The position numbers were made by a program, and so were the translations under genes. This document shows, piece after piece, positions 8,813 to 57,792 of a DNA stretch of 64,000 bases (positions within the stretch are counted from its first letter, which is position 1; every line of letters begins with the position of its first letter). The stretch lies in NCBI GenBank assembly GCA_045577175.1, contig JAZNHT010000017.1:18686-82685 (forward strand). The letters are read 5' to 3'. The notes under the pieces were generated by a model. It did no database searches. It had not been told where the DNA came from and worked only from the letters and a program-made list of their open reading frames with translations. This DNA comes from Eubacteriales bacterium. Lineage in GTDB: Bacteria > Bacillota > Clostridia > Oscillospirales > CAG-272.

Positions 8813-8829
8813 GGTAAATCCTCGCTTGG

Positions 8830-9468
8830 TTATTTCTTCTCGGCGCGCTGTGCCGTCAGCTCAGCCATTTTTGCGGCGAGTGCGGTGATTGCGTCGTTGT
8901 AGAATTTGTAGCTGACCTTGTTTGCGATCAGGCGTGCGCTGATCGGAACGATCGTTTCGATGACGGACAGATCGTTTTCCTTCAGCGTCGTGCCCGTTTC
9001 CACGATGTCCACGATCACGTCGGAAAGCCCGAGAATCGGGGCAAGCTCAATGGAGCCGTTCAACTTGATGATGTCGATGTCGCGGCTCTGCTCGTTGTAG
9101 AACGTGCGCGCGATGTTTACGAATTTCGTAGCCACGCGGAGCGTTTTGCCTGCGTCATAGCGGAAGCCGTTCTTCGCGGCGACTGCCATACGGCATTTTC
9201 CGACGTCGAGATCGCAAAGCTCATAGACGTCGGGCGTGTACTCAAGGAGAATATCCTTGCCTGCCACGCCTATGTCCGCCGCGCCGCGCTCGACGTAGAT
9301 TGCCACGTCGGACGGCTTTACCCAGAAGTAGCGCACGCCCGTCTCTTCGTTTTCGAAGATCAGCCGTCTGCCGCCTTCTTTGAGCGCGGGACATCCGTAC
9401 CCTGCCGCCTCAAACGTTTCGTATACCTTTTCTCCCAGCCGTCCCTTCGGCAGGGCAATATTAATCAT
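8830..9468 (-). CDS. hisG: ATP phosphoribosyltransferase, short form
   Basis: MINIALPKGRLGEK...; the short form is consistent with the adjacent hisZ. Start trimmed to MINIAL. Confidence 0.85.
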   Translation of the reverse strand: MINIALPKGRLGEKVYETFEAAGYGCPALKEGGRRLIFENEETGVRYFWVKPSDVAIYVERGAADIGVAGKDILLEYTPDVYELCDLDVGKCRMAVAAKNGFRYDAGKTLRVATKFVNIARTFYNEQSRDIDIIKLNGSIELAPILGLSDVIVDIVETGTTLKENDLSVIETIVPISARLIANKVSYKFYNDAITALAAKMAELTAQRAEKK

Positions 9469-10582
9469 GTGTTTCAAGAATCTCAAGCCCCCTGTCCTTC
9501 ATTGCGAGCAGCTGTCTGTAGCGGAATCCCTCGGGAATACGTCTCTGTGCGCGCACCGTTTTGCCGCTTTCTCCGAGCATTTTGACCGCGCGCGTCAGTG
9601 CGACCGCATCGGTATCTTCATCATAGAGAAGCAGAATGTCCGCATCAAAGCCGCGCTCGGGCGTGTTGTATCTTTCAAGCAGATCGAGATAGACCGCGAA
9701 GCCGATCGCACCGCCCGATTTGCCCATTTTTGTGAGCAGATTGTCGTACCGACCGCCTGCAAGCACCGCGTCGGGAATCCCCTCAATGAATCCGCTCAGG
9801 ATGATGCCGTTGTAGTACGACATATCGTTGACGGTGGAGAAATCCAGATTCACGTGCTCCGCATATCCTGCGGCATCCAGAACGGCGTGAACCGCTTCCA
9901 GCTCGTCAAGGGCATCGTTCTCCGCTTTGCCCATGCTGATCGCGCGGAGCTTGCCGATTGCCTCGGCAAACGGACCGTACAGCGTAGCCGCCGTCGTCAG
10001 CCGTGCACACGCATCCTCACCGATTCCGGCATCCTTACAGACGGCGGCGATCCCGTGCGCGTTTTTCTCACGGATGCATCCGATCAGTGCATCGCGCACG
10101 TCGCCCTCTGCACCGATTTCGTCGAGAAGGGCGGAGAGGAAGCCCATATGCGATATGTCGAGAATGTAATTTTCGCCGATTGTGGCAAGGCTCTGCACCG
10201 CGAGCAGGATGACCTCGCCCGTCTGATACAGATCGATTTCGCCGATGCACTCCAGACCGACCTGCATGATTTCGGAGATTTCGCGGCTGTCCTTCGACTC
10301 GCGGTAGACGTTTTCGGTGTAATACACCTTTTTCGTTTCCGCGCCGTCCCGTGCGTTTTTGACAATCGAGAGCGTAACGTCCGGACGGAGTGCCATCAGC
10401 CGTCCGCCGTCGGCGGTGAAGGTGATGATGCTGTCGCCGCGGAGAAAGCTCTTGTTCTTCGCGTACAGATCGTACTCCTCGAATTTGCTCATTTTGAAGC
10501 GGGCGTAGCCGTATCGGCTGTAGAGATCTCTGAGGGCAAAAACGGCACCCTCGCTGCCCAGACTCTCTTTCGTAATATCCAT
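9461..10582 (-). CDS. hisZ: ATP phosphoribosyltransferase regulatory subunit (HisRS paralog)
   Basis: HisRS-like catalytic core without an anticodon-binding domain. Overlaps hisG by 8 nt. The start MDITKES was chosen because the upstream ATG lies 5' of the predicted promoter -10. Confidence 0.8.
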   Translation of the reverse strand: MDITKESLGSEGAVFALRDLYSRYGYARFKMSKFEEYDLYAKNKSFLRGDSIITFTADGGRLMALRPDVTLSIVKNARDGAETKKVYYTENVYRESKDSREISEIMQVGLECIGEIDLYQTGEVILLAVQSLATIGENYILDISHMGFLSALLDEIGAEGDVRDALIGCIREKNAHGIAAVCKDAGIGEDACARLTTAATLYGPFAEAIGKLRAISMGKAENDALDELEAVHAVLDAAGYAEHVNLDFSTVNDMSYYNGIILSGFIEGIPDAVLAGGRYDNLLTKMGKSGGAIGFAVYLDLLERYNTPERGFDADILLLYDEDTDAVALTRAVKMLGESGKTVRAQRRIPEGFRYRQLLAMKDRGLEILETHD

Positions 10583-10624
10583 ATCGTAAACCTCGGTGGA
10601 ATGGGATTTTTTACTCTGCGGTAT

Positions 10625-10653
10625 AGTATAGCACACTTTAACGCTTTAGTCAA
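10625..10653 (-). promoter_or_regulatory. sigma-70-like promoter for the his operon
   Basis: On the minus strand: TTGACT, a 17-nt spacer, then TATACT, about 40 nt upstream of the hisZ start. Confidence 0.5.
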
Positions 10654-12183: not shown

Positions 12184-13422
12184 CTACAGACCGACTTCTC
12201 TGAGCAGATTGCGGACGGTTTCGACCGTGTCTCTGTCGAGATTTCGGAGTGCGCGCAGCGTCCGTGCAGAGCGTTTGCGCGTTTTGGGGCTGAACAGACC
12301 GCACCAGCGCGCGATTTGGCAAAACGGTGTGAGGATGCGGTGCTTTTCCAAAACGGGATACTTCAGCTTCAGCTCTGCATACGGCATAAAAATACGCCCC
12401 AGAATGTATTGCCCCCTGCCTCCTGCGCGTTGCTGACGGACGGTTTCGAAATTCGACCGAGTGCCGTACGCGCCTCCCGACAGAATGAATTTCTGCATAT
12501 CTTCCGTAAGTGCAGTGTGCGCGTCCGAGCCGAACCACACACCGATCAGCGAGCAGACACAGCCGTAGAAGCGCAGAAGCCCGCTTTCTTTCAGCAAAGA
12601 CGTGAGCAGTGCGCGATCAGGCGAGGTGCCTTTTTCGAGAAGATACAGATCGATCAGCGGACGGATGCCGCATCCGCCGCTTTGAAAGTGATATGCCATG
12701 TGCGCGATCACGTGAAAGAGCAGATACGTGTCCGACTGCCGATACGTCATTCCGCCTTCCGTCATCGGAGCGCTGAATTTCCATACGCGACGCAGCAGGC
12801 GGTCGGGTGCGGACATATTTTCGCAGATGCTGAAATGGAGTTCAATCGGCAGACCGCACGGGGCAAAGAGCGCGGTGTCGTGATAATTCCGTTTTTCGGA
12901 TGCGCGATAGTGCAGGCGGTTTGTCAGCACCTGTGCCGCCTGTTCCAGATCCGATTCGTGCACAAGGATGTCAATATCACAGCTCGTGCGCATCCACGGC
13001 GCGGGATAGTATGCGCGGATTACTGCGCCCTTCAGCGGGATATGCGGGATTGCGGCATCCGTAAGTACGCGGCAGATTTCCTCAAGCTCGTAGCGGAACT
13101 GCTCGTGCCTGTATGCCGCTTCCGCAAGTGCTTGGCGAAAGAGCTCGGATGCGCCGCCGCTTTTCATAAGATGCGCGCGGGAGATCGCCTGTGCGGTGAT
13201 GTGCGCAAGATCGTGATTGCTTGCAAGGGAGTACAGCATACGCAAGTCCTCCTCCGTTACGGATTGCGGAAGAGAGCAGTCTTCCTCTGTACCGCAAATC
13301 TGCGATCTGAGGAGTGAAAACAGAATATCTTCGGTGTTCACGGATGTTTTTTTACCTCGCTTGGGATACGGATCGTCGTTTTCGGTGAGATTCAGTATAG
13401 CATATCTTGTGCAAAAAAGCAA
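12184..13422 (-). CDS. nucleotidyltransferase family protein (PF14907/NTP_transf_5-like)
   Basis: IPLKGAVIRAYYP...RTSCDIDILVHESDLEQA is the DxD nucleotidyltransferase signature of the 'uncharacterised nucleotidyltransferase' family. It is transcribed divergently from the giant gene. Confidence 0.7.
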   Translation of the reverse strand: MLFCTRYAILNLTENDDPYPKRGKKTSVNTEDILFSLLRSQICGTEEDCSLPQSVTEEDLRMLYSLASNHDLAHITAQAISRAHLMKSGGASELFRQALAEAAYRHEQFRYELEEICRVLTDAAIPHIPLKGAVIRAYYPAPWMRTSCDIDILVHESDLEQAAQVLTNRLHYRASEKRNYHDTALFAPCGLPIELHFSICENMSAPDRLLRRVWKFSAPMTEGGMTYRQSDTYLLFHVIAHMAYHFQSGGCGIRPLIDLYLLEKGTSPDRALLTSLLKESGLLRFYGCVCSLIGVWFGSDAHTALTEDMQKFILSGGAYGTRSNFETVRQQRAGGRGQYILGRIFMPYAELKLKYPVLEKHRILTPFCQIARWCGLFSPKTRKRSARTLRALRNLDRDTVETVRNLLREVGL

Positions 13423-13474: not shown

Positions 13475-13503
13475 TTGACACGGCGGTTAACATGTGCTAT
13501 ACT
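13475..13503 (+). promoter_or_regulatory. sigma-70 promoter for the giant surface-protein operon
   Basis: TTGACA, a 17-nt spacer, then TATACT, about 110 nt upstream of ATG 13613. Confidence 0.6.
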
Positions 13504-13612: not shown

Positions 13613-16600
13613 ATGAAAAACACAGCAAAACGTTTATTTGGAATAGCATTGGTGTTTATCATGCTGTTCAGCATGTGGCTTGTCCCCACTGCTTTTGCAG
13701 AGGACAGCCTCAATGCGTGGGACGGTACGTCGGATACCTCGTGGTATAACGATACCGATACCGAATTTAGTTTGTCTACGGCAGAACAGCTTGCAGGCTT
13801 TGCAGAGCTTGTGAATGCCGGTAATACCTTCGGGGGGAAGACAGTTAAGCTGACAGCTGACATCAACCTCGGCGGTAAGACATGGACACCGATTGCATCC
13901 TTTGCAGGAAATTTTGTGGGAAACAACTGTACGATCAGTAATTTCCACATGGATGCAACGGAAAAAAGCAGCGGCTTTTTCGGCACTATTGCCGCAAGCA
14001 ACGGTCTGGAGGACGTAAAGGTCAAGGATCTTGTCCTCTCCGACGTGACTGCTGCTGTCGGCGCGTACCGCTTCGGTACACTCGCTAACAGTGTAAAAGG
14101 CGTTGTTCATAACGTTACTGTAAAGAATGTCACCGTTACTACCACCCATACAAGCGCTTGGGTTGGCGGTATGTGTGCCTTTATGGATTGGCCTTGGATG
14201 ACGAACTGCACGGTTGAAAATCTGACGGTGAATGCTGCCGCAGGCGCGGATTTGATTGGCGGATTTGCTTGCATTCTTCAGAAAAACAGCAACCATGTGT
14301 TTGACAACCTCGATGTCAACGGATTCAAGGTAACCGTAATCGATACGGATGCATCCGGATGCGGTGTCGGCGGCTTTGTTGCACAGACACAGCGCGGTTG
14401 GGAGTACCCCAAGGTTATAAACAGTGATGTTACCGGTATTGATGTTACAGCAGTCGGTCTTGTGGACGTCGGCGGCTTTATCGCATGGCCCGGTGCTCAC
14501 ACTACCGCTGAAAACTGCACTGCGCAGGGTAAGATCGACGTTACCGGCGTGACCTCTGCGGATTGCTTCGCAGGCGGCTTCTTCGGCAACCTCGGTTGGA
14601 ATGCAGACCTCGGTAAGATGGGCCACGTTGTCACCGGCTGCTCCGCAGATGTCGATATTATCACGAATGTGGCAGCTGCCGGCGGTTTTGTCGGCTCGGC
14701 TACCAACAGCAATAATGCAAGTATGTATGCAACTTTCACCGACTGCTCAGCAAGCGGTGATATTACCTCAAACGGTACTGCACCTGTCGGCGGCTTCGCA
14801 GGTGATGCGGATCGCGGTACATATAGTAACTGCTCTGCAACCGGCACCGTTGTCGGTGCGAACGGTGTAAGCGGCGGATTTATCGGTTATGTCAGTGACG
14901 TTACTCCGTCATATGATTCCCGTTATCCTGCCGGAACGCGCGACTATGCTGTCGAGTGCGTAACGTTTACCGACTGTACGGAAACTTCCGAGCTTCCGTT
15001 TTTCGGTGATGTGGATACAGCAAAACCGGCGGATGAGGTGGAAATCAGAAATTACGTCGCACAGGTCGGTGAGACTAAGTACGAAACCATCGCAGAGGCT
15101 ATCGCAAATGCTGCCGACGGTGACACTGTCGTAATTCTTCCCGGCGAATACGGCGCATTCAACATCAGCAACAAGAACATCACTATCAAGGGTACTGTTG
15201 GCGAGAACGGTGAGCTGCTTACCACCATCAAGGGTGGCAACCCCGCGATCACCGGTCACAATTTCAACGGTACTATTGCGGATTTGAAGATTGTGGATGC
15301 ATTTAAGGTTATGTATGCTGAACCTGCCGGAAACGTAACTGTTGATAATGTTTACGTAACAGGTGCTACATACGGCTTCCACCTTGTAGCTTATTCGACA
15401 GACTTGACGTGGACAATCCAAAACAGTTACATGGATTTGAGCTGGGCGAACTCCTTTGGCGTATATGATGGCGGCGATGCTGCTATCGTAGTTACGGGTA
15501 ATACTTTTGAGGCGACAAACCCGTATTATGAGGGCGGCTTTGTTTACCATGTAAATACATTCTTGCCGAATGTTACTGTTACAGAAAACATTTTTGGTGA
15601 AAATGCAAAGATTTTGATTCGGGACGCAGTAACAGATACCTCCAATATTAGAATTTTTGCGAACTATCATGCTGACGGCGTTGAGAATGCATTTGATGAA
15701 GACTCTTTAGAGGTCGCTATTGAATCTTACTACAGATCCGTTGATGAAAACGGCAATCTTACAGATCTTGTGACCGTTCCCACCGGCTCCAACTCTCCTG
15801 CATATACAAAGGAAGTTGACGGCTATGTTCGTATTTGGGGTGAGGGCAGCGGTAACGCTTCCGAAAGTTTCGTTCTGAAACTTTACTCCGAAGAAACTCT
15901 CATCGCTACCACCACGCTCAACAACGTTGGCGGAATCATCGACGGTGACGTTAACGTAACCTGGAACTTCTTCTATCCCAGCTCCAATGACGAATATTGG
16001 ACTACCACATGGGAAGAAGGGCATCCGAAAACAACTGCACAGCCCACCAAGGTTGAGCTTTACATCGACGGCACTCTCGTGGCTACCACAGATGCTCAGA
16101 TGAACGCTCCCGATAACCTCAATCCCGTTGTTTGGACCGAGCTCGGCGGTGTGGAAGCCGAAGTCATCGAAATTCGCACTTGGGATGATCTCAAGGCACT
16201 TGATGCACGCGTTGAAGGCGGTGATATGCTTGAGGGCGTGATCGTTAAGCTGATGAACGACATCGACCTGTACGAAATGGGTACAGACGGTGAGGCCGTA
16301 AGTTTTAACCCCATCGGTGCCAATAAGGCTTACTTCAAGGGTACATTTGACGGTCAGGGATACACCATCAGGAATATGTACCAGAGCGGTTGGGCGCTTG
16401 GCTATGACTGGTACAATTATGGTACCATCGGTCTGTTTGCATACCTTTGGGATGCAACGGTCAAGAATCTGACTATCGAAAATGCAGAATGCCTCGTTGA
16501 AGGCGGTAATGTAGCCGGTATTGCAGGTTGCGCGTGGGGCGACTGTACCTTCGAAAATATTACAATCAAAAATTCCACATTTGCAACCTACAACAACCGT

Positions 16601-19600
16601 GCAGCCGGTATCGTTGGTTACACCGGCGGCGAAGGCACCATGACCTTCAAAAATATTACGGTTGATGAGGATACTGTAATTGCCGCTCTGTGGGGCTCCT
16701 ACGATTGTACTCTCGGCGGCGTGGTCGGTTCCACACATAGCAACAATGTAACAAAATACGTCTTTGAAGATGTAACCGTTGCTTGTAAGCTTGATTGCTA
16801 TAATGACGTAACCGCATCTTATAAGTGGTATTCCTACAGAATGTGCGGTATGCTCATCGGCAGCATGAAAGCATTGCAGGAGGGAACAACCGACGTAGAT
16901 CCCCGCGATACCGTTACTCTGAAGAATGTCAATATTACCATCGGCGAATGGGCAAACCAGACATACATCTGGGACGACTCTCTCAGCAAGGGTTGTCAGC
17001 GCGTTGAAGCCGGCTATAGCTATGGCGGTGTGGATGTAAGCCAGTATCCCGATGCTGAGGTCGAAACCATCGGCTTTAACACCATTATCGGCGGTCCTCA
17101 GTCGCAGAGCTCCGGCTATTACGGCTCTGACATCACCAAACTTGAGGAACTCGAAGGCTTTGAAGAACAGGTAGCTGAATTGGATGTTACTGACATCGCA
17201 CTTGAGATCAGAAGCCGTGTCGCACAGGTTGGCGAGACGTACTTCACCAGCCTCCAGACTGCAATTGACAGCGCAAACGGCGAGACCGTAATTCTCATCG
17301 CTAACGCGACCGAGAACATCACGATTGCAGAAGGTGCAACTGTCGTAATCGACCTCGGCGGAAAGACGCTGAACGGTTATATTGCTCCTTGCTCGCCTGC
17401 TTCTCTGACGATTTCGAACGGTTCTGTCAAGAATACAGATTCTTCTGTCAGTGCGCTTGAGATCAACGCAGGCACGCTGACTCTCACAAATGTCAACATT
17501 GATTCCGCACGTCATGCAGTCCGCATCGACGGTGCGGTTACCGCAACCATCGACGGCGGTACCTACCGTTCTGCGATCGGTGAAGGTACCGGTACGTACC
17601 ATGCAGTAAATATCTCCGGCGATGCTTATGTTACCGTTAAGAACGGTACATTCGTGGGTCCGAAGGGCACTACTGCTGACAGCGGTTCTGCAATTTGCAC
17701 AAAAGCTGTAGTTATCATTGAAAACGGTTCATTCAGCGGCGGTAAGAACAGTACCCTGGTTACAAAAGACAGCGGTTCTGTTGTAATCACCGGCGGCACC
17801 TTCGATCAGGATCCCACTGCTTACGTGGCTGACGGCTACAAAGCTGTAGAGGCAGACGGTGTTTATACGGTTGTAATGGTTGTCTATGTCGCGGAGATGA
17901 ACGGAACGAAGTATGAAACTCTTGCCGAAGCCGTAGCTGCTGCCGGTGAGAATGACACTATCACTCTTATTAAAGACGTAGCTTTGACTGATACGCTGAC
18001 GATTCCTGCGGACAAGAAGATCATCCTTGACCTCGCAGGCTATACGGTCAGCCAGACGAAGGAACAGACCGCAGGCTATCAGATGATTCTCATTGACGGT
18101 ACGCTTACCGTGGAGGACTCTGTCGGCGGCGGTAAGATCAGCTATACCGACTCCGGCAACGGCGGCGAGTACATTTCCGATACGATTTACAACAGAGGCG
18201 TGCTCGTAATCAACGGCGGTACGATCGAAAACCTCAGCTCTGCTACGGTTGCATCGAACGGTTATCCGCACGCTGTGGATACGTATTCCGGTATCCGTGA
18301 TACTTCCGTTACGATCAACGGCGGCACGGTGTACTGCGCGGAATATTCCGCAATCCGTATGTTCTGCGTGAGCGAAACCTATAAGAACGATCTGACCATC
18401 ACAGGCGGTACGATCAAGGGTGCTGTGGATGCACAGAACGGTTCTAAGGATAAGGCTTGTGTCGGTGCGCTGAATATCACCGGCGGTACGTTTGAGACCA
18501 CTGCCAATGCAAACAACATCCGTATTGCAGACTGGCACTACTACGGCAGTACGGCTACCATCAGCGGTATCGAGGTTTCCGTTTCCGGCGGTAACTTCAA
18601 CGGCGGTATCTACAACAATATCGGTACGGTTGAAAAGTTCATCACCGGCGGTACGTTCACGGTTGACCCTTCGGCTTATGTGGTGTTCGGCTATGAAGCA
18701 ACGGAGAGCGAAGGCGTTTACGGCGTTGCTGCGTCCGCTATCATCAAAATCAACAATGCCGATGATCTCCTCGCATTTGCGGCTCTTGCCAATGCAGGCA
18801 ACACCTTCTCCGGCAAGACTGTCGAGCTTACGGACGACATCGATCTTGGCGGTATGACATGGACTCCCATTGCCAAGTTTGCGGGTAAGTTCTACGGTAA
18901 TGATTATACCATCAGCAACTTCGTGATCGATGCAACGGCTGCACACGGCGGTTTCTTCAACGTTCTGGAATGGGCAGTGATTGATGATCTGAATCTGGCT
19001 GACGTTACCGCAACTGTAGGCGCTTACCGTTTCGGTACGCTTGCCCGCAGCATCAATCAGACTTGTATCGGTGATGTTACAGTTAAAGACGTAACTGTTA
19101 CTACTACCAATTCTGAGGCTTTTGTGGCAGGCTTGTTCAGCCACGGTACCGTAAACTCCAATATGACGGTAAATAACTGCACGGTTGAGAATTTCACCGT
19201 TAATGCACAGAACGGTGCAATGCTGATCGGCGGTATTACGACCTTTGTTCAGAAAAACGGCACTGAGGCTGAAGACACAAACGTAATGGAGAACCTTCAT
19301 GTTAAGAACATCAAGGTTACCGTTAATGATACCGACGGTTATGCAGGCGTAGGCGGACTTATCGGTCAGACGCAGACTGTATGGCAGAATCCTCATTTCA
19401 AGAATTGCTCTGTAACCGGTCTTGATGTTACCGCAACAGGCACGGTTGACGTGGGCGGATTCATGTGCTATCCCGGCTCGTGGACCTATGCAACCGACTG
19501 CACAACCGAAGGTAAGATCGACGTTTCCGGCGTAACCTCTGCAAATAATTATGCAGGTGGTTTCTTCGGTGACTACGGTTGGGGTGATAACGTCGGCAAG

Positions 19601-20566
19601 GGTGACCACAAGATCACCAACTGTACGGCAGACGTCGATATTATCACCAAGTATGCGTCGGCAGGCGGCTTTGTCGGCTCCGGCACGAACTCCGAAGGTA
19701 GAAACAAAAACATTACCTTCACCGATTGTGAAGCGAAGGGCACTGTGACTCTCGCCGAGGGCGGCACTGCCAATATCGGCGGCTTCGCAGGCGAGGCGGA
19801 TCGCGGTATCTATATCGACTGTACCGCGGCACAGGAACCCTTCATCGGCGGTACTCTGAATGATTCGATCGAAATTCATAATTACGTCGCACAGATCGGT
19901 GACGTATCATACGACTCTCTCGATGAGGCACTTGCGGCCGCATCGAACGGACAGACGGTTAAACTGGTTGCCGATACGGAAACGGCGGCACTTGTGGTCA
20001 GCACCGGCATTACGGTTGATCTTGCAGGATACGATCTGACGGCAGGCTACGTCGTCACGTTCAAGGGTGCTGCCATCATCGACAGCAACAGTCAGATTGC
20101 CGATGCCGAGCTCGGCGCGCTCATCGCACCGCAGGATCTCGTCCGTCTGGACGGTCAGAACGCGAACTACTGTCCCGTATGGAACGGTACGGCGTACAAC
20201 TTCGGTTATGTATCCGTAAATGTAAGACAGTACGGTGTCAATGAGTCCGGTGCAGTTTACTATAACTTCCGTTATGACTTTACAGGTCAGAGAAGCGGTC
20301 TTGAGTCATTCTTTGCAAACGATGAGAGCACACTCGTTAAGGTGAAACTCACCTGGACAACGGTAAACGGAAATATCAGCGAGCAGAGCTTTACCATGCC
20401 GAGAGAGAAGGCACAGAGTATGGCAGAAATTCAGGATAAATTTGTTTCCCTTACCGTTACCGGTCTGAGCGGTATTCAGGATCTCAGCATTTGTGTAATT
20501 ATCGAATCCACTGCTACGCAGGTAGCGGTTGAAGGCGGCACTGTGACGCTCAGTGTTGCAGGTTAA
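13613..20566 (+). CDS. giant secreted protein (about 2317 aa) with GLUG-like repeat modules and beta-helix-like regions
   Basis: Signal peptide MKNTAKRLFGIALVFIMLFSMWLVPTAFA|ED. Recurrent GGF[AVI]G, GGLIG and GGFFG motifs. An N-terminal block of about 420 aa is duplicated near the C-terminus. There are four VAQVGET.Y.TL..A-type module onsets. No LPxTG motif or SLH domain. Confidence 0.8.
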   Translation: MKNTAKRLFGIALVFIMLFSMWLVPTAFAEDSLNAWDGTSDTSWYNDTDTEFSLSTAEQLAGFAELVNAGNTFGGKTVKLTADINLGGKTWTPIASFAGNFVGNNCTISNFHMDATEKSSGFFGTIAASNGLEDVKVKDLVLSDVTAAVGAYRFGTLANSVKGVVHNVTVKNVTVTTTHTSAWVGGMCAFMDWPWMTNCTVENLTVNAAAGADLIGGFACILQKNSNHVFDNLDVNGFKVTVIDTDASGCGVGGFVAQTQRGWEYPKVINSDVTGIDVTAVGLVDVGGFIAWPGAHTTAENCTAQGKIDVTGVTSADCFAGGFFGNLGWNADLGKMGHVVTGCSADVDIITNVAAAGGFVGSATNSNNASMYATFTDCSASGDITSNGTAPVGGFAGDADRGTYSNCSATGTVVGANGVSGGFIGYVSDVTPSYDSRYPAGTRDYAVECVTFTDCTETSELPFFGDVDTAKPADEVEIRNYVAQVGETKYETIAEAIANAADGDTVVILPGEYGAFNISNKNITIKGTVGENGELLTTIKGGNPAITGHNFNGTIADLKIVDAFKVMYAEPAGNVTVDNVYVTGATYGFHLVAYSTDLTWTIQNSYMDLSWANSFGVYDGGDAAIVVTGNTFEATNPYYEGGFVYHVNTFLPNVTVTENIFGENAKILIRDAVTDTSNIRIFANYHADGVENAFDEDSLEVAIESYYRSVDENGNLTDLVTVPTGSNSPAYTKEVDGYVRIWGEGSGNASESFVLKLYSEETLIATTTLNNVGGIIDGDVNVTWNFFYPSSNDEYWTTTWEEGHPKTTAQPTKVELYIDGTLVATTDAQMNAPDNLNPVVWTELGGVEAEVIEIRTWDDLKALDARVEGGDMLEGVIVKLMNDIDLYEMGTDGEAVSFNPIGANKAYFKGTFDGQGYTIRNMYQSGWALGYDWYNYGTIGLFAYLWDATVKNLTIENAECLVEGGNVAGIAGCAWGDCTFENITIKNSTFATYNNRAAGIVGYTGGEGTMTFKNITVDEDTVIAALWGSYDCTLGGVVGSTHSNNVTKYVFEDVTVACKLDCYNDVTASYKWYSYRMCGMLIGSMKALQEGTTDVDPRDTVTLKNVNITIGEWANQTYIWDDSLSKGCQRVEAGYSYGGVDVSQYPDAEVETIGFNTIIGGPQSQSSGYYGSDITKLEELEGFEEQVAELDVTDIALEIRSRVAQVGETYFTSLQTAIDSANGETVILIANATENITIAEGATVVIDLGGKTLNGYIAPCSPASLTISNGSVKNTDSSVSALEINAGTLTLTNVNIDSARHAVRIDGAVTATIDGGTYRSAIGEGTGTYHAVNISGDAYVTVKNGTFVGPKGTTADSGSAICTKAVVIIENGSFSGGKNSTLVTKDSGSVVITGGTFDQDPTAYVADGYKAVEADGVYTVVMVVYVAEMNGTKYETLAEAVAAAGENDTITLIKDVALTDTLTIPADKKIILDLAGYTVSQTKEQTAGYQMILIDGTLTVEDSVGGGKISYTDSGNGGEYISDTIYNRGVLVINGGTIENLSSATVASNGYPHAVDTYSGIRDTSVTINGGTVYCAEYSAIRMFCVSETYKNDLTITGGTIKGAVDAQNGSKDKACVGALNITGGTFETTANANNIRIADWHYYGSTATISGIEVSVSGGNFNGGIYNNIGTVEKFITGGTFTVDPSAYVVFGYEATESEGVYGVAASAIIKINNADDLLAFAALANAGNTFSGKTVELTDDIDLGGMTWTPIAKFAGKFYGNDYTISNFVIDATAAHGGFFNVLEWAVIDDLNLADVTATVGAYRFGTLARSINQTCIGDVTVKDVTVTTTNSEAFVAGLFSHGTVNSNMTVNNCTVENFTVNAQNGAMLIGGITTFVQKNGTEAEDTNVMENLHVKNIKVTVNDTDGYAGVGGLIGQTQTVWQNPHFKNCSVTGLDVTATGTVDVGGFMCYPGSWTYATDCTTEGKIDVSGVTSANNYAGGFFGDYGWGDNVGKGDHKITNCTADVDIITKYASAGGFVGSGTNSEGRNKNITFTDCEAKGTVTLAEGGTANIGGFAGEADRGIYIDCTAAQEPFIGGTLNDSIEIHNYVAQIGDVSYDSLDEALAAASNGQTVKLVADTETAALVVSTGITVDLAGYDLTAGYVVTFKGAAIIDSNSQIADAELGALIAPQDLVRLDGQNANYCPVWNGTAYNFGYVSVNVRQYGVNESGAVYYNFRYDFTGQRSGLESFFANDESTLVKVKLTWTTVNGNISEQSFTMPREKAQSMAEIQDKFVSLTVTGLSGIQDLSICVIIESTATQVAVEGGTVTLSVAG

Positions 20567-20589
20567 TTTAAGAACAGGAGAATAGAATC

Positions 20590-20715
20590 ATGAAGAAACT
20601 TTATCAGAAACCCGAAGCAGAGATCATCGGACTGCGTATCCGTGAGCCGATCGCCGATCAGGCAGGTGTCGGAAGCTGGGGCTCCGGCATCGATGAGGAT
20701 ATTGTAGACCCGTGA
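20590..20715 (+). CDS. unannotated 41-aa ORF, a candidate leader-bearing substrate peptide for the downstream kinase/PqqD pair
   Basis: MKKLYQKPEAEIIGLRIREPIADQAGVGSWGSGIDEDIVDP. AGGAGA RBS 7 nt upstream. It begins 23 nt after the giant-gene stop, and its TGA overlaps the kinase GTG as GTGA. Y5-x-x-P8-x-A-x-x-x-G14 resembles the lasso-leader RRE-binding motif YxxPxLxxxG. Confidence 0.55.
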   Translation: MKKLYQKPEAEIIGLRIREPIADQAGVGSWGSGIDEDIVDP

Positions 20716-21419
20716 TCTGTAAAATCGCAGATCTTACCGTGGATGTTCCGTCGGCGGGGGGGCTTTCCCCCCGCTTTACGGAATATCTGTACGAGTTTCG
20801 CGGGCAGACGGACATCCGAATCGATGCAGCGCAGTACCGTCACGCAAAATATCCGAACGCATCGGCAGAGCTTATCGCCTACATTGAATCCGGTATGCAG
20901 TTTCATCGGGAGATTCTGCGCTTTGACGGGATGATGCTTCATTCCTCCGCCGTTGCATTGGGCGGGTGGGCGTATCTCTTTTCAGGTCCTTGCGGCGAGG
21001 GAAAATCCACGCACGCAAAGCTATGGAAGGAGGTGTTCGGAAGTGAGGCGGTCATCATAAATGACGACAAGCCTACACTCCGCCGTCTGGATGGGAGATG
21101 GTTTGCCTACGGCACGCCGTGGTGCGGCAAGGATGGGATTAACGTGAATCGGAAAGTGCCGCTCGGCGGCATCTGCTTTTTGAAGCAGGGTACGGAAACC
21201 CGTATCCGCCGTCTTGAAAATCCCGAATCTACCGCCAACGTGATTCTGCAAACCATGCACAGATTCAAGGATGAAGAGAATCTGACCAGAATGCTGTCTC
21301 ACGTTGACAAGCTGGTGCGTGAGATTCCGATGTTTGAATTGGAAAATCAGCCCGTACCCGATGCCGCACGTCTCAGCTTTGAAACGATGCACCGTGCTTT
21401 GAAGGAGGCTTCACTGTGA
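20712..21419 (+). CDS. HprK-related P-loop kinase (HPr kinase C-terminal-domain-like)
   Basis: GTG start. Walker A LFSGPCGEGKSTHAKLW resembles the HprK/P GDSGVGKSE motif. 235 aa, i.e. kinase-domain size only. Confidence 0.65.
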   Translation: MICKIADLTVDVPSAGGLSPRFTEYLYEFRGQTDIRIDAAQYRHAKYPNASAELIAYIESGMQFHREILRFDGMMLHSSAVALGGWAYLFSGPCGEGKSTHAKLWKEVFGSEAVIINDDKPTLRRLDGRWFAYGTPWCGKDGINVNRKVPLGGICFLKQGTETRIRRLENPESTANVILQTMHRFKDEENLTRMLSHVDKLVREIPMFELENQPVPDAARLSFETMHRALKEASL

Positions 21420-21679
21420 AAATCAAAAATGGATTTGTGCTCCGCGAGGTTGCCGAGCATTGGTTTGTTCTGCCCGTCGGGCAGGCATCGGTCGATTTCA
21501 ACGGAATGATTTCTTTGAATGAGTCCGGTGTGCTCCTCTGGCAGACGCTTGAGGCAGGCGGAGATCGGGAAGCAATGTGCGAGGCTTTGCTTGCAGAATA
21601 TGAGGTGGAGCGCGCGCAGGCGCTTTCGGATGTGGATGCGTTCATCAAGGTATTGACGGACGCAGGCTGTATCGAATAA
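21416..21679 (+). CDS. PqqD-family protein (RiPP recognition element-like peptide chaperone)
   Basis: 87 aa, ...ISLNESGVLLWQTLEAGGDREAMCEALLAEYEVERAQALSDVDAFIKVLTDAGCI is the PqqD/RRE pattern. GTG start with AAGGAGG RBS. GTGA overlap with the kinase stop. Confidence 0.7.
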   Translation: MKIKNGFVLREVAEHWFVLPVGQASVDFNGMISLNESGVLLWQTLEAGGDREAMCEALLAEYEVERAQALSDVDAFIKVLTDAGCIE

Positions 21680-21762: not shown

Positions 21763-22725
21763 GTGAAAAAAAGATTACTTGCTTTTCTCGGGGCATTGCT
21801 TCTGCTTTTTTCCGCCGTCGCGGTACACGCTGCCGGATTTACAGCAAAGCAGCTTCGCATAGCTGACGCACTTCATCATGTCGGTCTGTTTCTCGGAACA
21901 GGCTCGGGGTATGAGTTGAACAGACAGCTAACCCGTACCGAGGGCATGGTGCTTCTTGTCCGCATGCTCGGACAGGAGCAGAATGTGCAAAGAGGCGGAT
22001 ACGAATGTCCGTTTACCGATGTCGCTGAGTGGGCGGTGAATTATGTCGGCTACGCATATGAGAACGGTATTACGCGCGGCTATTCGGACACGGAGTTCGG
22101 TGCCGAAGATCCGATGACGGATTATATGTTTCTGACGCTTACACTCCGTGCACTTGGCTATAACGATAAAGGTGCAAATACGGAATTTGTCTGGGACGAT
22201 CCGTATGCACTGGCACAGAAAATCGGACTGATTTCTTCGGGAAAATCGGATAAGGATTTTATTCGTGCCGATGCTGTGGAGGTTTTTTGGAACGCATTTA
22301 AGCAGAACGACTATGAGTTGGCGCATAAGCTCATCCGATGGGGCGTGTTTACCGAAAAGCAGCTCAGTGAAGCGATTGAAATTTACACCTACGGCAGGAT
22401 CGTGACGGAAGAAACCACACGGGACGCGGATGGGGACACAGATGATGCAACCCCCGAAGTAACCGCACCGAATACTCCGCCTGCACCGTCCATACCTCAG
22501 CAAACGGAAACGACAACGCTTCCGCCCGTGCCGAGCGGTTCGATCTCTTATGAGGAATATATAGCCATGAGCGGTGAGGAGCAGGAGGCGTACTTTATGC
22601 AGTTCTCCGATCCGATGGCGTTCTTTGTATGGCTGGAGACCGCTAAAGCAGAGTACGATGCCAAAAACCCGAGCATTGACATTGGTGACGATGGCAATAT
22701 TGATCTCGGCGGACTTGGAAGCTGA
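21763..22725 (+). CDS. secreted protein with SLH (S-layer homology)-like repeats
   Basis: Signal peptide MKKRLLAFLGALLLLFSAVAVHA. FTDVAEWAVNYVGYAYENGITRGYSDTEFG fits the SLH consensus. A Pro/Thr-rich linker follows. Confidence 0.6.
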   Translation: MKKRLLAFLGALLLLFSAVAVHAAGFTAKQLRIADALHHVGLFLGTGSGYELNRQLTRTEGMVLLVRMLGQEQNVQRGGYECPFTDVAEWAVNYVGYAYENGITRGYSDTEFGAEDPMTDYMFLTLTLRALGYNDKGANTEFVWDDPYALAQKIGLISSGKSDKDFIRADAVEVFWNAFKQNDYELAHKLIRWGVFTEKQLSEAIEIYTYGRIVTEETTRDADGDTDDATPEVTAPNTPPAPSIPQQTETTTLPPVPSGSISYEEYIAMSGEEQEAYFMQFSDPMAFFVWLETAKAEYDAKNPSIDIGDDGNIDLGGLGS

Positions 22726-23221
22726 TACTGCCACGGTGGAAACGGCAAAAATACAAGAGGTGTCGGTGACCGCTGTTTTTCCCGTGTTGGAGGAGCTTCT
22801 TTCCGTCGGGACGAGCGTGGAGATCACGGTCAGCGGAAACAGTATGTATCCGATGCTGAAGCATCAGATCAGCCGTGTACGTCTTGCTCCCGTCGGAGCT
22901 TTGCGGATAGGCGATCTTCCGCTTTACCGTAGGGAGAACGGCGCATATGTTCTGCACCGTATCGTCGGACGGAAGGAAGGCGGCTATGTCTGCTGCGGAG
23001 ACAATCAGCGCGAGCTTGAATTTGGCATCCGTCGGGAGCAGATTGTCGCTGTAGCGACCGATTATTACCGCAATGACCGTTGGCGATCCTGTGCATCATG
23101 GTCGTACAGGATGTATGCACGCGTGTGGATTGCGATTCGTCCGTGTCGCCACGCCTTTCTGTCGGTCGGTCGGTGGGTGTTTCGGCTTCTCAGGCGGGCG
23201 AAAAATCACTTCGAAAAGTAA
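22691..23221 (+). CDS. type I signal peptidase (S26) family protein; start uncertain
   Basis: VSGNSMYPML...GDLPLYRR...YVLHRIVG matches the SPase I boxes (SGxSMxPTL, GD, KRxIG). The track ORF begins at 22574 inside the SLH gene. Candidate starts are ATG 22691 or GTG near 22734. Confidence 0.55.
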   Translation: MAILISADLEADTATVETAKIQEVSVTAVFPVLEELLSVGTSVEITVSGNSMYPMLKHQISRVRLAPVGALRIGDLPLYRRENGAYVLHRIVGRKEGGYVCCGDNQRELEFGIRREQIVAVATDYYRNDRWRSCASWSYRMYARVWIAIRPCRHAFLSVGRWVFRLLRRAKNHFEK

Positions 23222-23256
23222 AAGAACCCTTGCTGCGCTATCGCAGCAAGGGTTTG

Positions 23257-27326: not shown

Positions 27327-29075
27327 TTACTGTGCGAACTGGCTGTTGTACAGATTTGCGTAAAATCCGTCTTTGGCGAGCAGCTCGCCGTGCCGTCCCT
27401 GCTCGACGATGTTGCCGTCACGCATCACGAGGATTACATCCGCCTCACGGATTGTGGAGAGACGGTGCGCCACGATGAAGCTCGTGCGTCCTTTCATCAT
27501 GCGTGCAAACGCCTCCTGAATCTTTGCTTCGGTGCGCGTGTCGATCGAGGAGGTCGCCTCGTCCAGAATCAGAATCGGCGGCAGGCAGAGCATCACGCGT
27601 GTGATACAGAGCAGCTGCTTTTGTCCCGCGGACAGGCTGCCTCCGTCCTCGCCGATTACGGTATCGTATCCGTCGGGCAGACGGCGGATGAAGCTGTGCG
27701 CGTGTGCCGCTTTCGCCGCATCGATCATTTCTTCGTCGGTTGCGTCGGGACGTCCCATTTTGATGTTCTCGCGGATCGTGCCCGATTTCAGCCACGTGTC
27801 CTGGAGTACCATACCGATGTTCTGCCTCAGCGAGGCGCGTGTGAGAGCGCGGATGTCCGTGCCGTCGGCAAGGATGGCACCGGCATCTACGTCGTAAAAA
27901 CGCATCAGCAGATTGATGACCGTCGTTTTTCCGCATCCGGTCGGTCCGACAATGGCGACGCGCTGTCCCGGGCGCACGTGCAGATTGAAATCGCGGATCA
28001 GCGGTCGCTCGGGTACGTAGGAGAACGATACCTCCTTTACGTCAATTTCTCCTGAGGCTTCCGTTAAAACGGCGGCGTCCGCTTGGTCGGGCGTCTCCGT
28101 CGGCGCTTCGATCAGCTCAAACAGACGGGAGGCACACGCCAGCGCATTTTGCAGCTCCGTGATGACGCCCGAGATTTCGTTGAAAGGCTTCGCGTACTGC
28201 GTTGCGTAGCTGAGAAAGCACGTCAGTCCGCCGACCGTGATCGCACCCAAAAGGGCGGCAAACGCGCCCGAAAGCGCAACGGCGGCGTAGATCAGGTTGT
28301 TCAGCACTCTTGTGCTCGGATTGACCAGGGAAGAGAAGAACACCGCCTTGAGGGAGCATTTTTCGAGCCTATCCCCAATCTCATCGAATTGCAGAAGTAC
28401 GTCGTCCTCCTTTGAAAATGCCTGCACGACCTTCTGCCCGGAGAGCATTTCGTCAATCAGCGCGGTCTGCTCACCGCGCACCTCCGACTGCGCACGGAAG
28501 AAACGGTACGTTTTTGTTGCGATAAACCGTGCCAGAAGGAGCGACATCGGCGTCAGAACAACGACCACCGCCGTGATGCCCACGTGGATTGTCAGCATGA
28601 ATACAAGCGTGCCGAGGATCGTTACAACGCCGGTGAACAGCTGTGTGAAGCCCATCAGAAGCCCGTCTGCCAGCTGATCCGCGTCGGTGATGACACGGCT
28701 GACCGTCGCGCCTGTCGGATGCGTGTCGGTGTAGGAAAGCGGCAGCTTCTGAATCCGTGAGAACGCTTCGTTTCTGAGATCGCGTACCACGCCGTAGGTA
28801 ATGCGGTTGTTTATCATGTTCATGATCCACTGCGAAAGTGCCGCGCCGGCAACAATCACGATAATCTTCAAAAGAAGCGGTCGGATCACGTCAAAGCGCA
28901 CCGCCCCCGCCTCGGTGATTGCGTCGATTGCCTCACCGATGAGGATCGGGACGTAGAGCGACAGTGCCACGGTTACGGTGGCAAGCAGCAGGGAGAAAAT
29001 CAGAAAAACGCGGTATTTTTTGATGTGAGACAGCACCTTTCCGAGCGTGCCGCGCGAGGCTTTTTCTTTTGCCAT
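27327..29075 (-). CDS. ABC transporter ATP-binding/permease protein (type I exporter half-transporter)
   Basis: Six-helix TMD followed by an NBD with Walker A GPTGCGKTT and LSAGQKQ. Start MAKEKAS. ATGA overlap with the upstream partner. Confidence 0.8.
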   Translation of the reverse strand: MAKEKASRGTLGKVLSHIKKYRVFLIFSLLLATVTVALSLYVPILIGEAIDAITEAGAVRFDVIRPLLLKIIVIVAGAALSQWIMNMINNRITYGVVRDLRNEAFSRIQKLPLSYTDTHPTGATVSRVITDADQLADGLLMGFTQLFTGVVTILGTLVFMLTIHVGITAVVVVLTPMSLLLARFIATKTYRFFRAQSEVRGEQTALIDEMLSGQKVVQAFSKEDDVLLQFDEIGDRLEKCSLKAVFFSSLVNPSTRVLNNLIYAAVALSGAFAALLGAITVGGLTCFLSYATQYAKPFNEISGVITELQNALACASRLFELIEAPTETPDQADAAVLTEASGEIDVKEVSFSYVPERPLIRDFNLHVRPGQRVAIVGPTGCGKTTVINLLMRFYDVDAGAILADGTDIRALTRASLRQNIGMVLQDTWLKSGTIRENIKMGRPDATDEEMIDAAKAAHAHSFIRRLPDGYDTVIGEDGGSLSAGQKQLLCITRVMLCLPPILILDEATSSIDTRTEAKIQEAFARMMKGRTSFIVAHRLSTIREADVILVMRDGNIVEQGRHGELLAKDGFYANLYNSQFAQ

Positions 29076-30808
29076 CAGACTGCCGCCTCCTTTTTGAACT
29101 GGGAATCGTAGATCTCGCGGTAGATTTCGCACGTTTCAAGCAGAGATTCGTGCGTGCCGATCGCGGCAATCTCGCCGTCATCAAGCACGATGATCTGATC
29201 CGCGTGCGCGATCGATGAGGTGCGCTGGGAGACGATGAATACGGTCATCTCGCCGTCCAGTGCCTTGAGCGCACGGCGGAGGGCGGCATCCGTTGCAAAA
29301 TCGAGCGCGGATGCGCTGTCGTCCAGAATCAGAATCTCCGGCTTCCGCACAAGCGCCCGTGCAATCGTCAAACGCTGTCTCTGTCCGCCGGACAGATTCC
29401 GTCCGCCTGCCTCAATCACGAAGTCCAGACCGCCGTCCTTGTCCTCCACGACCTTCTTTGCCTGCGCGGTCTCCAGTGCCGCCCACAGCTCTGCATCCGT
29501 CGCGTCGGGATTGCCGTAGAGAAGATTCTCGCGCACGGTGCCGCGGAAAAGGAGTGCCTTTTGCGGTACGGTGCCGATCTTTTTGCGGAGCACGTCCGTG
29601 TCATAGGCGCGGACATCCACGCCGCCGACCGTCACACAGCCCTCGCTTACGTCATAGAATCGCGGGATCAGGTTCACGAGCGATGTTTTGCCGCTGCCCG
29701 TGCCGCCGATTACGCCGACAGTCTCTCCTTTTTTTACGGAGAGGGAAATTTTCTCCAGCGAGGGCGCACCTGCACCGCGGTAGGTGAGCATCACGTTTTC
29801 AAAACGTACCGCATCATCGTTTTTGACATCTGCCGAAATTTCGGGATACTCCTTCATCCCCGCAGGGATTTCGAGCACCGCCTCCACGCGGTTTCCGCAG
29901 GCGACCGCTTTCGTGATCGTGATAAACAGATCCGCCGCCTTGATAAGCTCAATAAGAATCTGCGACATATAGTTGTACAAAGCAATCACGGCACCCTGCG
30001 TGAGGATACCTGCCTGAACGCGGAGCGCGCCCTTGTGAATCAGCCATACGGTTGCGAGATTGATGATGACGAACGTCACGGGATTCATGAGTGCGGAGAT
30101 GCGCCCGACAAATTTCTGCCGTGCGGTGAGCGCGTCGTTCTTTTCGCGGAAATCCGCCTCCTCCGTCTTTTCTCGGCAGAACGCGCGGATCACACGGATG
30201 CCCGTGAGATTCTCGCGCACCGATCTGAGCACGCCGTCAAGTGCCTTCTGCACCTTTTTGTAAAGCGGAATGCTTGCAAGCATCACGCTGAAAACAACGA
30301 CGAAAAGGGCAGGGATGGCGACCGCAAACGTGAGCGCGGCCTTCGTGTCGATCGTGAACGCCATGACCATTGCGCCGAACACGACGAACGGCGAACGGAG
30401 CAGCAGGCGGAGCGAGAGATTCACACCCGTCTGAATCTGATTCATGTCGCTCGTGATACGGGTAATCATCGTGGAGGTGCCAAGCGTGTCGAGCTCCTCA
30501 TAGGAGAGCTTGCCCAGATGTGCAAACAAAGCGTGCTTGACGCGCGTGACGAATCCGACCGCGGTTTTGGCGGCGAAATACTGCGCCGTGATCGAAAACA
30601 GATACCCGACAATGCCGAGTGCGGCGAGAAGCAGGCACATCCGCAGGATGTAGCCCTTGTCCGCGTTCCCGATGCCCTTGTCAATTACGTTGGCGATTAC
30701 CAGCGGCACGAGCAGCTCCAAGGTCGCCTCAATCAGCTTGAAAAGCGGACTCAGAACGATCGCGCGTCCGTACCCCTTCATGTATACAAACAGCTTTTTC
30801 ACAGTCAA
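29075..30808 (-). CDS. ABC transporter ATP-binding/permease protein (partner half-transporter)
   Basis: TMD plus NBD with GGTGSGKTS and LSGGQRQ; forms a heterodimeric exporter pair with the gene above. Confidence 0.8.
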   Translation of the reverse strand: MTVKKLFVYMKGYGRAIVLSPLFKLIEATLELLVPLVIANVIDKGIGNADKGYILRMCLLLAALGIVGYLFSITAQYFAAKTAVGFVTRVKHALFAHLGKLSYEELDTLGTSTMITRITSDMNQIQTGVNLSLRLLLRSPFVVFGAMVMAFTIDTKAALTFAVAIPALFVVVFSVMLASIPLYKKVQKALDGVLRSVRENLTGIRVIRAFCREKTEEADFREKNDALTARQKFVGRISALMNPVTFVIINLATVWLIHKGALRVQAGILTQGAVIALYNYMSQILIELIKAADLFITITKAVACGNRVEAVLEIPAGMKEYPEISADVKNDDAVRFENVMLTYRGAGAPSLEKISLSVKKGETVGVIGGTGSGKTSLVNLIPRFYDVSEGCVTVGGVDVRAYDTDVLRKKIGTVPQKALLFRGTVRENLLYGNPDATDAELWAALETAQAKKVVEDKDGGLDFVIEAGGRNLSGGQRQRLTIARALVRKPEILILDDSASALDFATDAALRRALKALDGEMTVFIVSQRTSSIAHADQIIVLDDGEIAAIGTHESLLETCEIYREIYDSQFKKEAAV

Positions 30809-42418: not shown

Positions 42419-42450
42419 AAAAGGCAGTATGTCCTTTCGTTTTGATGGGA

Positions 42451-57551: not shown

Positions 57552-57792
57552 GGTACTGTCTCCTTGTGTCCGCAGTTCGGATCAGCTATACAGTATACCA
57601 TATTTTTGTCGGATTTGCAACTTTTTTGTTATTTCCGCCTGTGCCGGTACGAGTTTCATACATTAATAATAAAAAATATTTGGCGGTTTTCTGAAAAAAC
57701 TATTGCTATTTACAAGAAAATATTGTATAATTTATAATTGGAGTAGCGTAACATCCATATATATTCAAAAAACTATGATGAGGGAAAATGCT

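Follow-up and report, generated by a model that had tools for sequence, protein, structure and literature searches.

Linear polyphosphorylated peptides (LPPs) have been described in Bacilli by Popov et al. (Nat Commun, 20 May 2026; PMC13381572), where the respective gene clusters are embedded in capsule loci. The cluster of Paenibacillus alginolyticus has the gene order lppA-K-B-S-D-N and encodes, in addition to the precursor LppA, an HprK-like kinase (LppK), a discrete recognition element for peptides that are made by ribosomes and modified after translation (RRE; LppB), an MsbA-like exporter (LppD) and a nucleoside triphosphate (NTP) transferase (LppN), without a macrolactam cyclase (PMC13381572). 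The LppA leader follows the consensus YxxPxVLxHQxIxFET, after which the core begins with xxS; upon heterologous expression, LppB presents the precursor, LppK places one to four phosphates on the core residue Ser3, LppS, a protein similar to signal peptidase I of the archaeal, SipW-like type (SpI; catalytic residues S29, H68 and D93), cuts the leader after T-1 only together with LppB, and LppN is silent in the host that was used (PMC13381572). Kinase substrates are also known among lasso precursors, namely those of paeninodin and pseudomycoidin (PMC6993621) and BsfA (PMC10368454), and PsmN, a relative of the PF14907 family, is needed for the addition of a hexose onto the phosphate (PMC6993621). 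Here we analyze a stretch of 64,000 nucleotides of contig JAZNHT010000017.1 from an Eubacteriales bacterium (hereinafter, the window) and, in particular, an open reading frame (ORF) of 41 codons at positions 20590-20715 that adjoins the gene for an HprK-fold kinase. With a probability that we put at roughly 0.8, this ORF encodes an LppA-type precursor of a linear, ribosomally made and subsequently modified peptide of the LPP kind.

The elements of the window on which this assignment turns are the following:
20576-20581, forward strand: ribosome-binding site AGGAGA, 8 nucleotides before the ATG of the precursor gene
20590-20715, forward strand: LppA-like precursor peptide gene, assigned from the leader profile and family conservation
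20712-21419, forward strand: gene for an LppK-like kinase of the HprK fold (PF27840, ScmC), coupled to the peptide gene by translation
21416-21679, forward strand: gene for an LppB-like discrete RRE of the PqqD family (PF05402, E 2e-17)
22736-23221, forward strand: gene for an LppS-like homologue of archaeal-type signal peptidase I, the putative leader peptidase, with Ser in GNSM, His in LHRIV and Asp in GDNQ

The precursor ORF extends from ATG 20590 to TGA 20715 on the forward strand and encodes 41 amino acids, MKKLYQKPEAEIIGLRIREPIADQAGVGSWGSGIDEDIVDP. It begins after a gap of 23 nucleotides that follows the stop codon of a giant ORF at 20566, and its TGA overlaps the GTG start codon of the 235-codon kinase ORF (20712-21419) by 4 nucleotides, as GTGA. 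The sequence of the ORF, the ribosome-binding site, the gap and the overlap are all as given in the preliminary description of this DNA. Judging from the sequence, the leader comprises about residues 1-22, MKKLYQKPEAEIIGLRIREPIA, and is followed by an acidic Gly/Ser core of about residues 23-41. The only hydroxyl residues in this core are S29 and S32, and the setting of S29, G-S-W-G, resembles the Q-S-W-N-x-G that surrounds the published LPP acceptor. Scans of the window peptide and three of its relatives against Pfam and NCBIfam yielded no meaningful match.

This 41-codon ORF is a genuine gene for a precursor peptide, and it is conserved. [quoted passage not shown] A plain search of these loci for ORFs that begin with ATG and end close to the start of the kinase gene yielded peptides of the form MKKxYxKPxxExIxF... 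A hidden Markov model (HMM) of the first 25 residues, which was run against every stop-to-stop segment on both strands of all loci, detected, besides the one in the window, homologous small ORFs in 62 of 80 loci, in most cases ending within some 0-25 nucleotides of the kinase start; elsewhere in the searched loci, the model matched nothing apart from a second copy in each of three loci. The preliminary description had proposed a precursor-type peptide with an RRE-binding leader, coupled to an HprK-related kinase and a discrete PqqD protein, and had named the lack of conserved small ORFs at the equivalent position of homologous loci as a refuting outcome; this outcome did not occur, as such ORFs recur in 62 loci. 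Independent gene callers have annotated the small ORF in four metagenome contigs (L081-L084), and the relatives of the peptide in the public collections that were searched are all unnamed and contain no Pfam domain. In the closest relative of the window (L001, with 84% identity between the kinases), the ORF is much better conserved than the flanking intergenic DNA, and the changes in the leader are mostly synonymous.

The 65 distinct peptides of this family share the N-terminal consensus MKKxYxKPxxExIxF...ExI, in which Y5 and P8 are invariant and E11, I/V13, F/L15, E19 and I/L21 are strongly conserved. Of the YxxPxLxxxG leader motif that had been read into the window peptide, the Tyr and Pro stand, with A, V, I or L found at position 10. 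Position 14 is D, S, E or K in the relatives, so that the match at G14, a residue that is not conserved, is coincidental. Beyond approximately residue 23, the sequences cannot be aligned: the cores are hypervariable, short (about 18 amino acids) and strongly acidic, their net charge averaging -4.3. They share a composition with 14% D, 9% E, 18% G, 9% S and 7% P, no Cys and nearly no Lys or Arg. Ser is present in all 65 distinct cores, against 12.4 Ser-free cores expected from composition and length (P ~7e-7). In each of three loci, the precursor gene occurs twice, in nearly identical form:
L011: 464-595 and 5870-6001
L015: 3321-3452 and 4774-4905
L059: 5627-5761 and 5853-5984
In L011 and L015, the duplicated unit is a tandem [surface-protein gene + peptide gene], so that each peptide gene follows a surface-protein gene of its own; between the duplicated stretches of DNA, identity is 92% in L011 and 72% in L015, and yet the two peptides of L015 differ at just 2 residues.

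For a direct comparison with the published pathway, we used a control locus of Paenibacillus frigoriresistens (L085, 11488-16456), the LppS of which is 97% identical to the published one. The locus has the arrangement known from the published work: its lpp cluster consists of genes for a precursor (72 amino acids), kinase, PqqD, SpI, ATP-binding cassette (ABC) transporter and PF14907 protein, in this order, preceded by Wzz and BY-kinase genes and directly followed by a paeninodin-type lasso cluster that encodes an Asn_synthase cyclase, a 44-amino acid precursor, a PF07475 kinase, PqqD, Transglut_core3 and PF14907 proteins.

The kinase gene that overlaps the precursor ORF belongs to a family with 1874 detectable homologues. 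An AlphaFold2 model built from 23 of them (predicted local distance difference test score, pLDDT, 92) retrieves, as the top Foldseek matches, the catalytic domains of the HprK/P structures 2qmh, 1knx and 1kkm, followed by phosphoenolpyruvate carboxykinases, in agreement with the earlier designation of this gene as an HprK-related kinase. The fold was established in this manner because a sequence search of PDB with the kinase profile gave only Walker A matches to ABC transporters. A scan against a local copy of Pfam gave no match for the window kinase. The residues H77, G95, G97, K98, S99, D118 and D119, that is, the His, the Walker A motif GxGKS and the Asp-Asp pair, are invariant in the family, and their counterparts in the lasso-peptide kinase BsfK are essential according to mutagenesis (PMC10368454). 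Both the window kinase and the LppK orthologue of the Paenibacillus control belong to PF27840 (ScmC) and are 28% identical over 147 amino acids (E 3e-12), whereas the lasso kinase of the adjoining Paenibacillus cluster (PF07475) can be aligned with the window kinase at the Walker A motif only.

The PqqD-family protein, which the preliminary description correctly placed two genes downstream of the precursor ORF, is 42.5% identical to a Desulfosporosinus RRE and 25-30% identical to LppB. The LppB residues N33, Y60, D70 and F74 are retained at the aligned positions; in LppB, N33, D70 and F74 hold the Tyr and Pro of the leader, and D70 is the hydrogen-bond partner of the Tyr hydroxyl (PMC13381572). 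In contrast, the Trp-specific lasso RRE PbaB1 has a Gln at the position equivalent to D70.

The leader peptidase gene had been overlooked in the preliminary description. Its GTG start codon at 22736 was placed by alignment with the ATG of the L001 homologue. The encoded protein matches TIGR02228 below the curated cut-off (E 5.5e-6) and LppS with 33% identity over 93 amino acids (BLASTP, E 9e-10), and is closer to the clostridial RRE-linked SpIs of Supplementary Data 1 of PMC13381572 (32-35% identity, E 1e-21 to 6e-26). The latter belong to clusters 4 and 9 of the sequence similarity network (SSN) in that work, which files the RREs concerned under 'others' and gives the precursors as 'not determined' (PMC13381572). 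The GNSM, LHRIV and GDNQ motifs are conserved in 53 peptidase homologues. It is this signal peptidase-like gene that makes the system identifiable as one of the LPP type.

The most likely course of phosphorylation, leader cleavage and export, as well as the acceptor residue and the biological role, can be inferred by homology with the published, biochemically characterized pathway. The leader, anchored by Y5 and P8, would bind the discrete RRE (21416-21679) as an added β-strand, and the RRE-bound precursor would then be phosphorylated by the LppK-type kinase (20712-21419), possibly several times on one Ser. The acceptor is predicted to lie in the acidic C-terminal core, with S29 in G-S-W-G as the best candidate and S32 as the second. 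The notion that a Ser in the C-terminal half of the peptide is the kinase target was already part of the preliminary description, and the chemistry in question has been demonstrated experimentally in the homologous LPP system (PMC13381572); for the present family, the Ser found in every one of the 65 cores lends it indirect support. The SpI-like serine protease (22736-23221), assisted by the RRE, would trim the leader close to where its conserved region ends, at about I21-A22-D23, and in the family as a whole the cut probably falls, as a guess, near ExI(A/M/T)(D/N) at residues 19-23. The phosphate may then receive a further group from the PF14907 enzyme (12184-13422), and the product would be released by an ABC exporter.

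Several observations weigh against the assignment to the LPP type. Comparison of the leader profiles with hhalign (46 leaders of this branch against 12 published LppA) aligns 22 N-terminal columns with a 3-residue gap at E 1e-4, a weak match with a probability of 58%. HQxIxFET, the distal part of the published leader, has no conserved counterpart in this branch, nor does the acceptor Ser3 of the core, and therefore homology gives no means of carrying over either the cleavage site or the phosphorylation site of the published LPPs. Among the cores, the [S/T]-hydrophobic-G motif that surrounds S29 shows weak enrichment only, with 13 occurrences against 7.1 expected, a count that was reached in 38 of 2000 shuffles. 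In 15 loci with ample upstream DNA, no precursor was detected within 6 kb on either side of the kinase gene (L007, L017, L020, L024, L026, L027, L040, L041, L050, L053, L063, L071, L072, L074, L080). A relaxed search of the 18 loci without an HMM match, three of which lack upstream DNA, also retrieved none; in the 15 loci, the precursor may be encoded elsewhere or may be too divergent for the profile, and in some Bacilli the precursor is indeed encoded away from the cluster (PMC13381572). Finally, no dedicated exporter adjoins the cassette in the window. An ABC pair at 27327-30808 was considered as the LppD exporter and rejected, its similarity being only generic (24-29% identity to cluster-adjacent exporters of related loci and 26-30% to LppD).

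Clustering of all ORFs of 81 loci (the 80 fetched loci and the window) against each other reveals a fixed gene order: giant secreted protein (54 loci), peptide, kinase (81), PqqD (76), secreted protein (73) and signal peptidase-like protein (54). This cassette is followed, in a variable manner, by genes for an ABC exporter (24 loci), a PF14907 protein (21), Wzz and BY-kinase (18-19) and CpsB (9). In several of the 24 loci with an ABC homologue, an orthologous exporter gene lies behind the peptidase gene; in the closest relative of the window, L001, a P-type ATPase gene on the other strand, rather than an exporter, follows the peptidase gene. The remaining features of the operon and its surroundings are the following:
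13475-13503, forward strand: promoter-like site TTGACA-17-TATACT with TG in front of the giant gene, 11 of 12 matches to the consensus, identified by the consensus match alone
13613-20566, forward strand: gene for a giant secreted Glug-repeat protein with a signal peptide and Glug and M26_N-like regions, about 2317 amino acids from ATG 13613
21763-22725, forward strand: gene for a secreted protein that combines a signal peptide and an SLH domain with a conserved C-terminal domain of some 60 amino acids, between the RRE and peptidase genes
12184-13422, reverse strand: gene for an LppN-like nucleotidyltransferase of the PF14907 family (E 6e-42), oriented divergently to the giant gene
23225-23254, strand not assigned: hairpin with a perfect 13-bp stem and T-runs on both sides, between the peptidase-like gene and the convergent ksgA

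From its sequence, the site at 13475-13503 is likely to be the start of the operon, and the hairpin at 23225-23254 is probably its terminator, acting in both directions. The giant ORF, 2337 codons in length and ending at 20566, has a homologue in L081 (9-9845) and in L083 (1-9856), and the encoded proteins, 2317 amino acids long in the window and 3278 and more than 5345 amino acids long in relatives, contain Glug repeats, β-helix and LRR_5 regions. A weak hairpin (20535-20559) lies within the last codons of the giant gene. In the secreted protein encoded inside the cassette, only the signal peptide and the C-terminal domain of about 60 amino acids, with the consensus ..YEEYxAMSxEEQxAYFxxF....FFxWxxxAKxxY......IEIGxDGxIDxGD and no Pfam family, are conserved; the middle part is variable and, in the window, contains the SLH domain. 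The lpp cluster of Paenibacillus has no such gene.

The PF14907 protein of the window is 25% identical to the Paenibacillus LppN orthologue over 175 amino acids (E 3e-8). The preliminary description had included a PF14907 protein in a set with the kinase and PqqD; the gene is present, albeit on the reverse strand and 8 kb upstream, whereas in other loci it is adjacent, located downstream on the same strand, and the gene that follows PqqD in the window is that for the secreted SLH protein. We found no support for the suggestion that this enzyme adds adenosine monophosphate (AMP) to the peptide; the one characterized relative, PsmN, is required to place a hexose on the phosphate (PMC6993621). 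The cassette has cpsB/C/D-type genes or an LCP gene in its vicinity. A second very large ORF of more than 2099 codons (57703-64000, forward strand) runs past the end of the window and is densely filled with leucine-rich repeats of the BspA type (PF13306, E 1e-220); as far as the window extends, no peptide/kinase cassette adjoins it. Around the cassette, at 39769-43782 and 6459-10636, both on the reverse strand, are genes for RnfC, RnfD, an FMN-binding subunit, histidine biosynthesis, hisZ/hisS-like proteins, glyS, ksgA and an LCP-family protein; this ordinary housekeeping context is consistent with a chromosomal location rather than a mobile element.

The gene neighborhood bears on the most resilient of the alternatives, namely that the peptide is a substrate of the kinase and RRE, with a chemistry or fate that differs from Ser polyphosphorylation of a free peptide. 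Under this alternative, the modified acidic peptide could, for example, remain at the cell surface as a partner of the giant or SLH protein, or else the phosphate could be no more than a handle for a glycan that is attached by the PF14907 enzyme and the nearby polysaccharide genes. The giant secreted-protein gene directly precedes the peptide gene in 54 loci including the window, with a gap of 12-25 nucleotides; a conserved secreted-protein gene is found inside the cassette; the surface-protein and peptide genes are duplicated together in L011 and L015; cpsB/C/D-type or LCP genes are nearby; PsmN-dependent hexose addition onto phosphate is an established reaction (PMC6993621); and even for the published system, the final LPP product is unknown (PMC13381572). 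However, synteny among related genomes can stem from common descent rather than function, and both extra genes are absent from the published Bacilli clusters; we regard this alternative as unlikely. The branch-specific context hints at a tie between the peptide and the surface protein, which could be explained equally well by shared ancestry. Tentatively, and with the odds against it, one could go further and propose that the LPP cassette of Oscillospiraceae-type gut bacteria is a fixed component of an operon for a giant secreted surface protein and a secreted protein that is sometimes SLH-anchored, and that the short, strongly acidic phosphopeptide has its site of action at the cell surface instead of being a free antimicrobial. 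It might, for example, be a partner or cofactor of the giant protein or a signal for its maturation.

It is very unlikely that the ORF is an unmodified upstream ORF or coupling device controlling translation of the kinase operon, or a chance ORF. The 4-nucleotide overlap with the kinase start and the lack of a Pfam or NCBIfam family match would fit such an explanation. The peptide, however, is conserved at the amino acid level, with the invariant Tyr and Pro and a 20-residue leader maintained across strongly diverged DNA; between the window and L001, the leader changes are mostly synonymous next to far more diverged intergenic DNA; Ser is obligatory in the cores; and the partner RRE keeps the Tyr- and Pro-binding residues.

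The remaining alternative, a lasso precursor of the paeninodin/Bsf type for which the kinase, RRE and PF14907 protein would be tailoring factors and the cyclase and the cysteine protease B2 would be encoded elsewhere in the genome, can appeal to the YxxP motif that is common to lasso leaders (PMC13381572, PMC10368454), to the lasso PqqD models that are the best NCBIfam matches of the RRE, far below their cut-offs, and to a ring such as G28-D35 that can be drawn on the window peptide, but it is extremely improbable and we reject it given the absence of a cyclase or B2 from the window and related loci. Specifically, neither an Asn_synthase-type cyclase nor a Transglut_core3 B2 was detected with Pfam in the 40 ORFs (about 34 likely genes) across the 64-kb window, among the conserved neighbors in the 80 loci, or within 10 kb on either side in L081 and L083, whereas both were readily detected in the Paenibacillus control locus. 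The window kinase belongs to the LppK rather than the lasso type, and the SpI-type peptidase fills the role of the leader peptidase. The cores have no conserved residue at position 1 and no conserved acidic residue at positions 7-9, and none of the NCBIfam lasso precursor models matches the window peptide.

The phosphorylated lasso systems nonetheless share with the window an HprK-like kinase with the same catalytic residues and a PF14907-like N gene; in these systems, the kinase acts on the precursor with its leader, and phosphorylation is accelerated by the B1 RRE, which binds a leader of the YxxP type. They differ in having the cyclase and cysteine protease B2, where the window encodes a leader peptidase homologous to the serine protease SpI; in a kinase that can be aligned with that of the window only around the Walker A motif; and in a conserved C-terminal Ser, which is not found across the precursor family described here. 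The existence of lasso substrates and of linear LppA also corrects the assertion in the preliminary description that no substrate was known for a kinase/PqqD/PF14907 set: paeninodin and pseudomycoidin (PMC6993621) and BsfA (PMC10368454) are such substrates, known from 2016-2023, and the cyclase-free linear family with its signal peptidase-type leader peptidase was published in 2026 (PMC13381572). Hence, the idea that the ORF supplies the missing precursor to an orphan triad does not hold. The earlier observation is correct and the mechanism proposed with it largely right; the claim of novelty is wrong.

The ScmC/ScmD systems of SynChlorMet (SCM) cassettes and the HprK-related kinase A/PqqD systems are linked to an unidentified precursor in the TIGRFAMs family descriptions. 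The window kinase shows weak profile similarity to ScmC (TIGR04249, 26.2 bits against a cut-off of 125) and to HprK-related kinase A (TIGR04352, 18.3 bits against a cut-off of 200), the RRE shows weak similarity to ScmD (TIGR04248, 19.4 bits against a cut-off of 100), and the Pfam name of PF27840 is ScmC. Membership in an SCM cassette was rejected given these scores below the cut-offs and the failure to find radical-SAM/SPASM partners, no radical-SAM gene being present among the neighbors in the window and related loci; membership in HprK-related kinase A was likewise rejected on its score.

If the assignment to the LPP type is correct, the LPP machinery extends from Bacilli to a large group of gut anaerobes, with at least 519 related stretches in species-representative genomes, and precursor sequences are now available for a branch with SpIs for which the precursor is listed as 'not determined' (PMC13381572). 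A family of genes for peptides of 35-58 amino acids, unnamed and Pfam-less in the public collections that were searched, is thereby identified, which should be of use for genome annotation, and the 65 natural precursor variants, the candidate acceptor Ser and the two extra conserved partners provide material for probing the role of the phosphopeptides. The conserved link to giant surface proteins and to a secreted protein is a lead on LPP function; should the tentative surface-operon proposal hold, it would offer the first handle on the biological role of LPPs, along with a clostridial subfamily that has its own leader-cleavage code.

Compared with the published LPPs, the system described here differs in its hosts, which are uncultured gut or rumen Clostridia, Oscillospiraceae-like, instead of Bacilli. 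Its leader has just 4 residues before the Tyr and a distinct ExI(A/M/T)(D/N) motif at residues 19-23, and its cores are short and strongly acidic, in contrast to the Gly/Asn/Lys-rich cores of the published LPPs. An extra conserved secreted-protein gene is inserted between B and S, a giant secreted-protein gene directly precedes the precursor, the SpI and RRE are closest to SSN clusters 4 and 9 (PMC13381572), and, in the window, the N gene is divergent and 8 kb upstream and no dedicated exporter adjoins the cassette. The similarities are nevertheless extensive. In both systems, a small precursor combines a YxxP leader with a hypervariable C-terminus; the gene order A-K-B-(X)-S of the window parallels lppA-K-B-S; an LppK-type kinase adjoins the precursor, together with a discrete RRE that has the LppB residues and an SpI with the Ser, His and Asp; a PF14907 NTP transferase is present and no macrolactam cyclase was found; and genes for cell-envelope and polysaccharide functions surround the cassette. 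Most likely, the system in the window is thus a clostridial version of the published LPP pathway and, as such, belongs to a known type.

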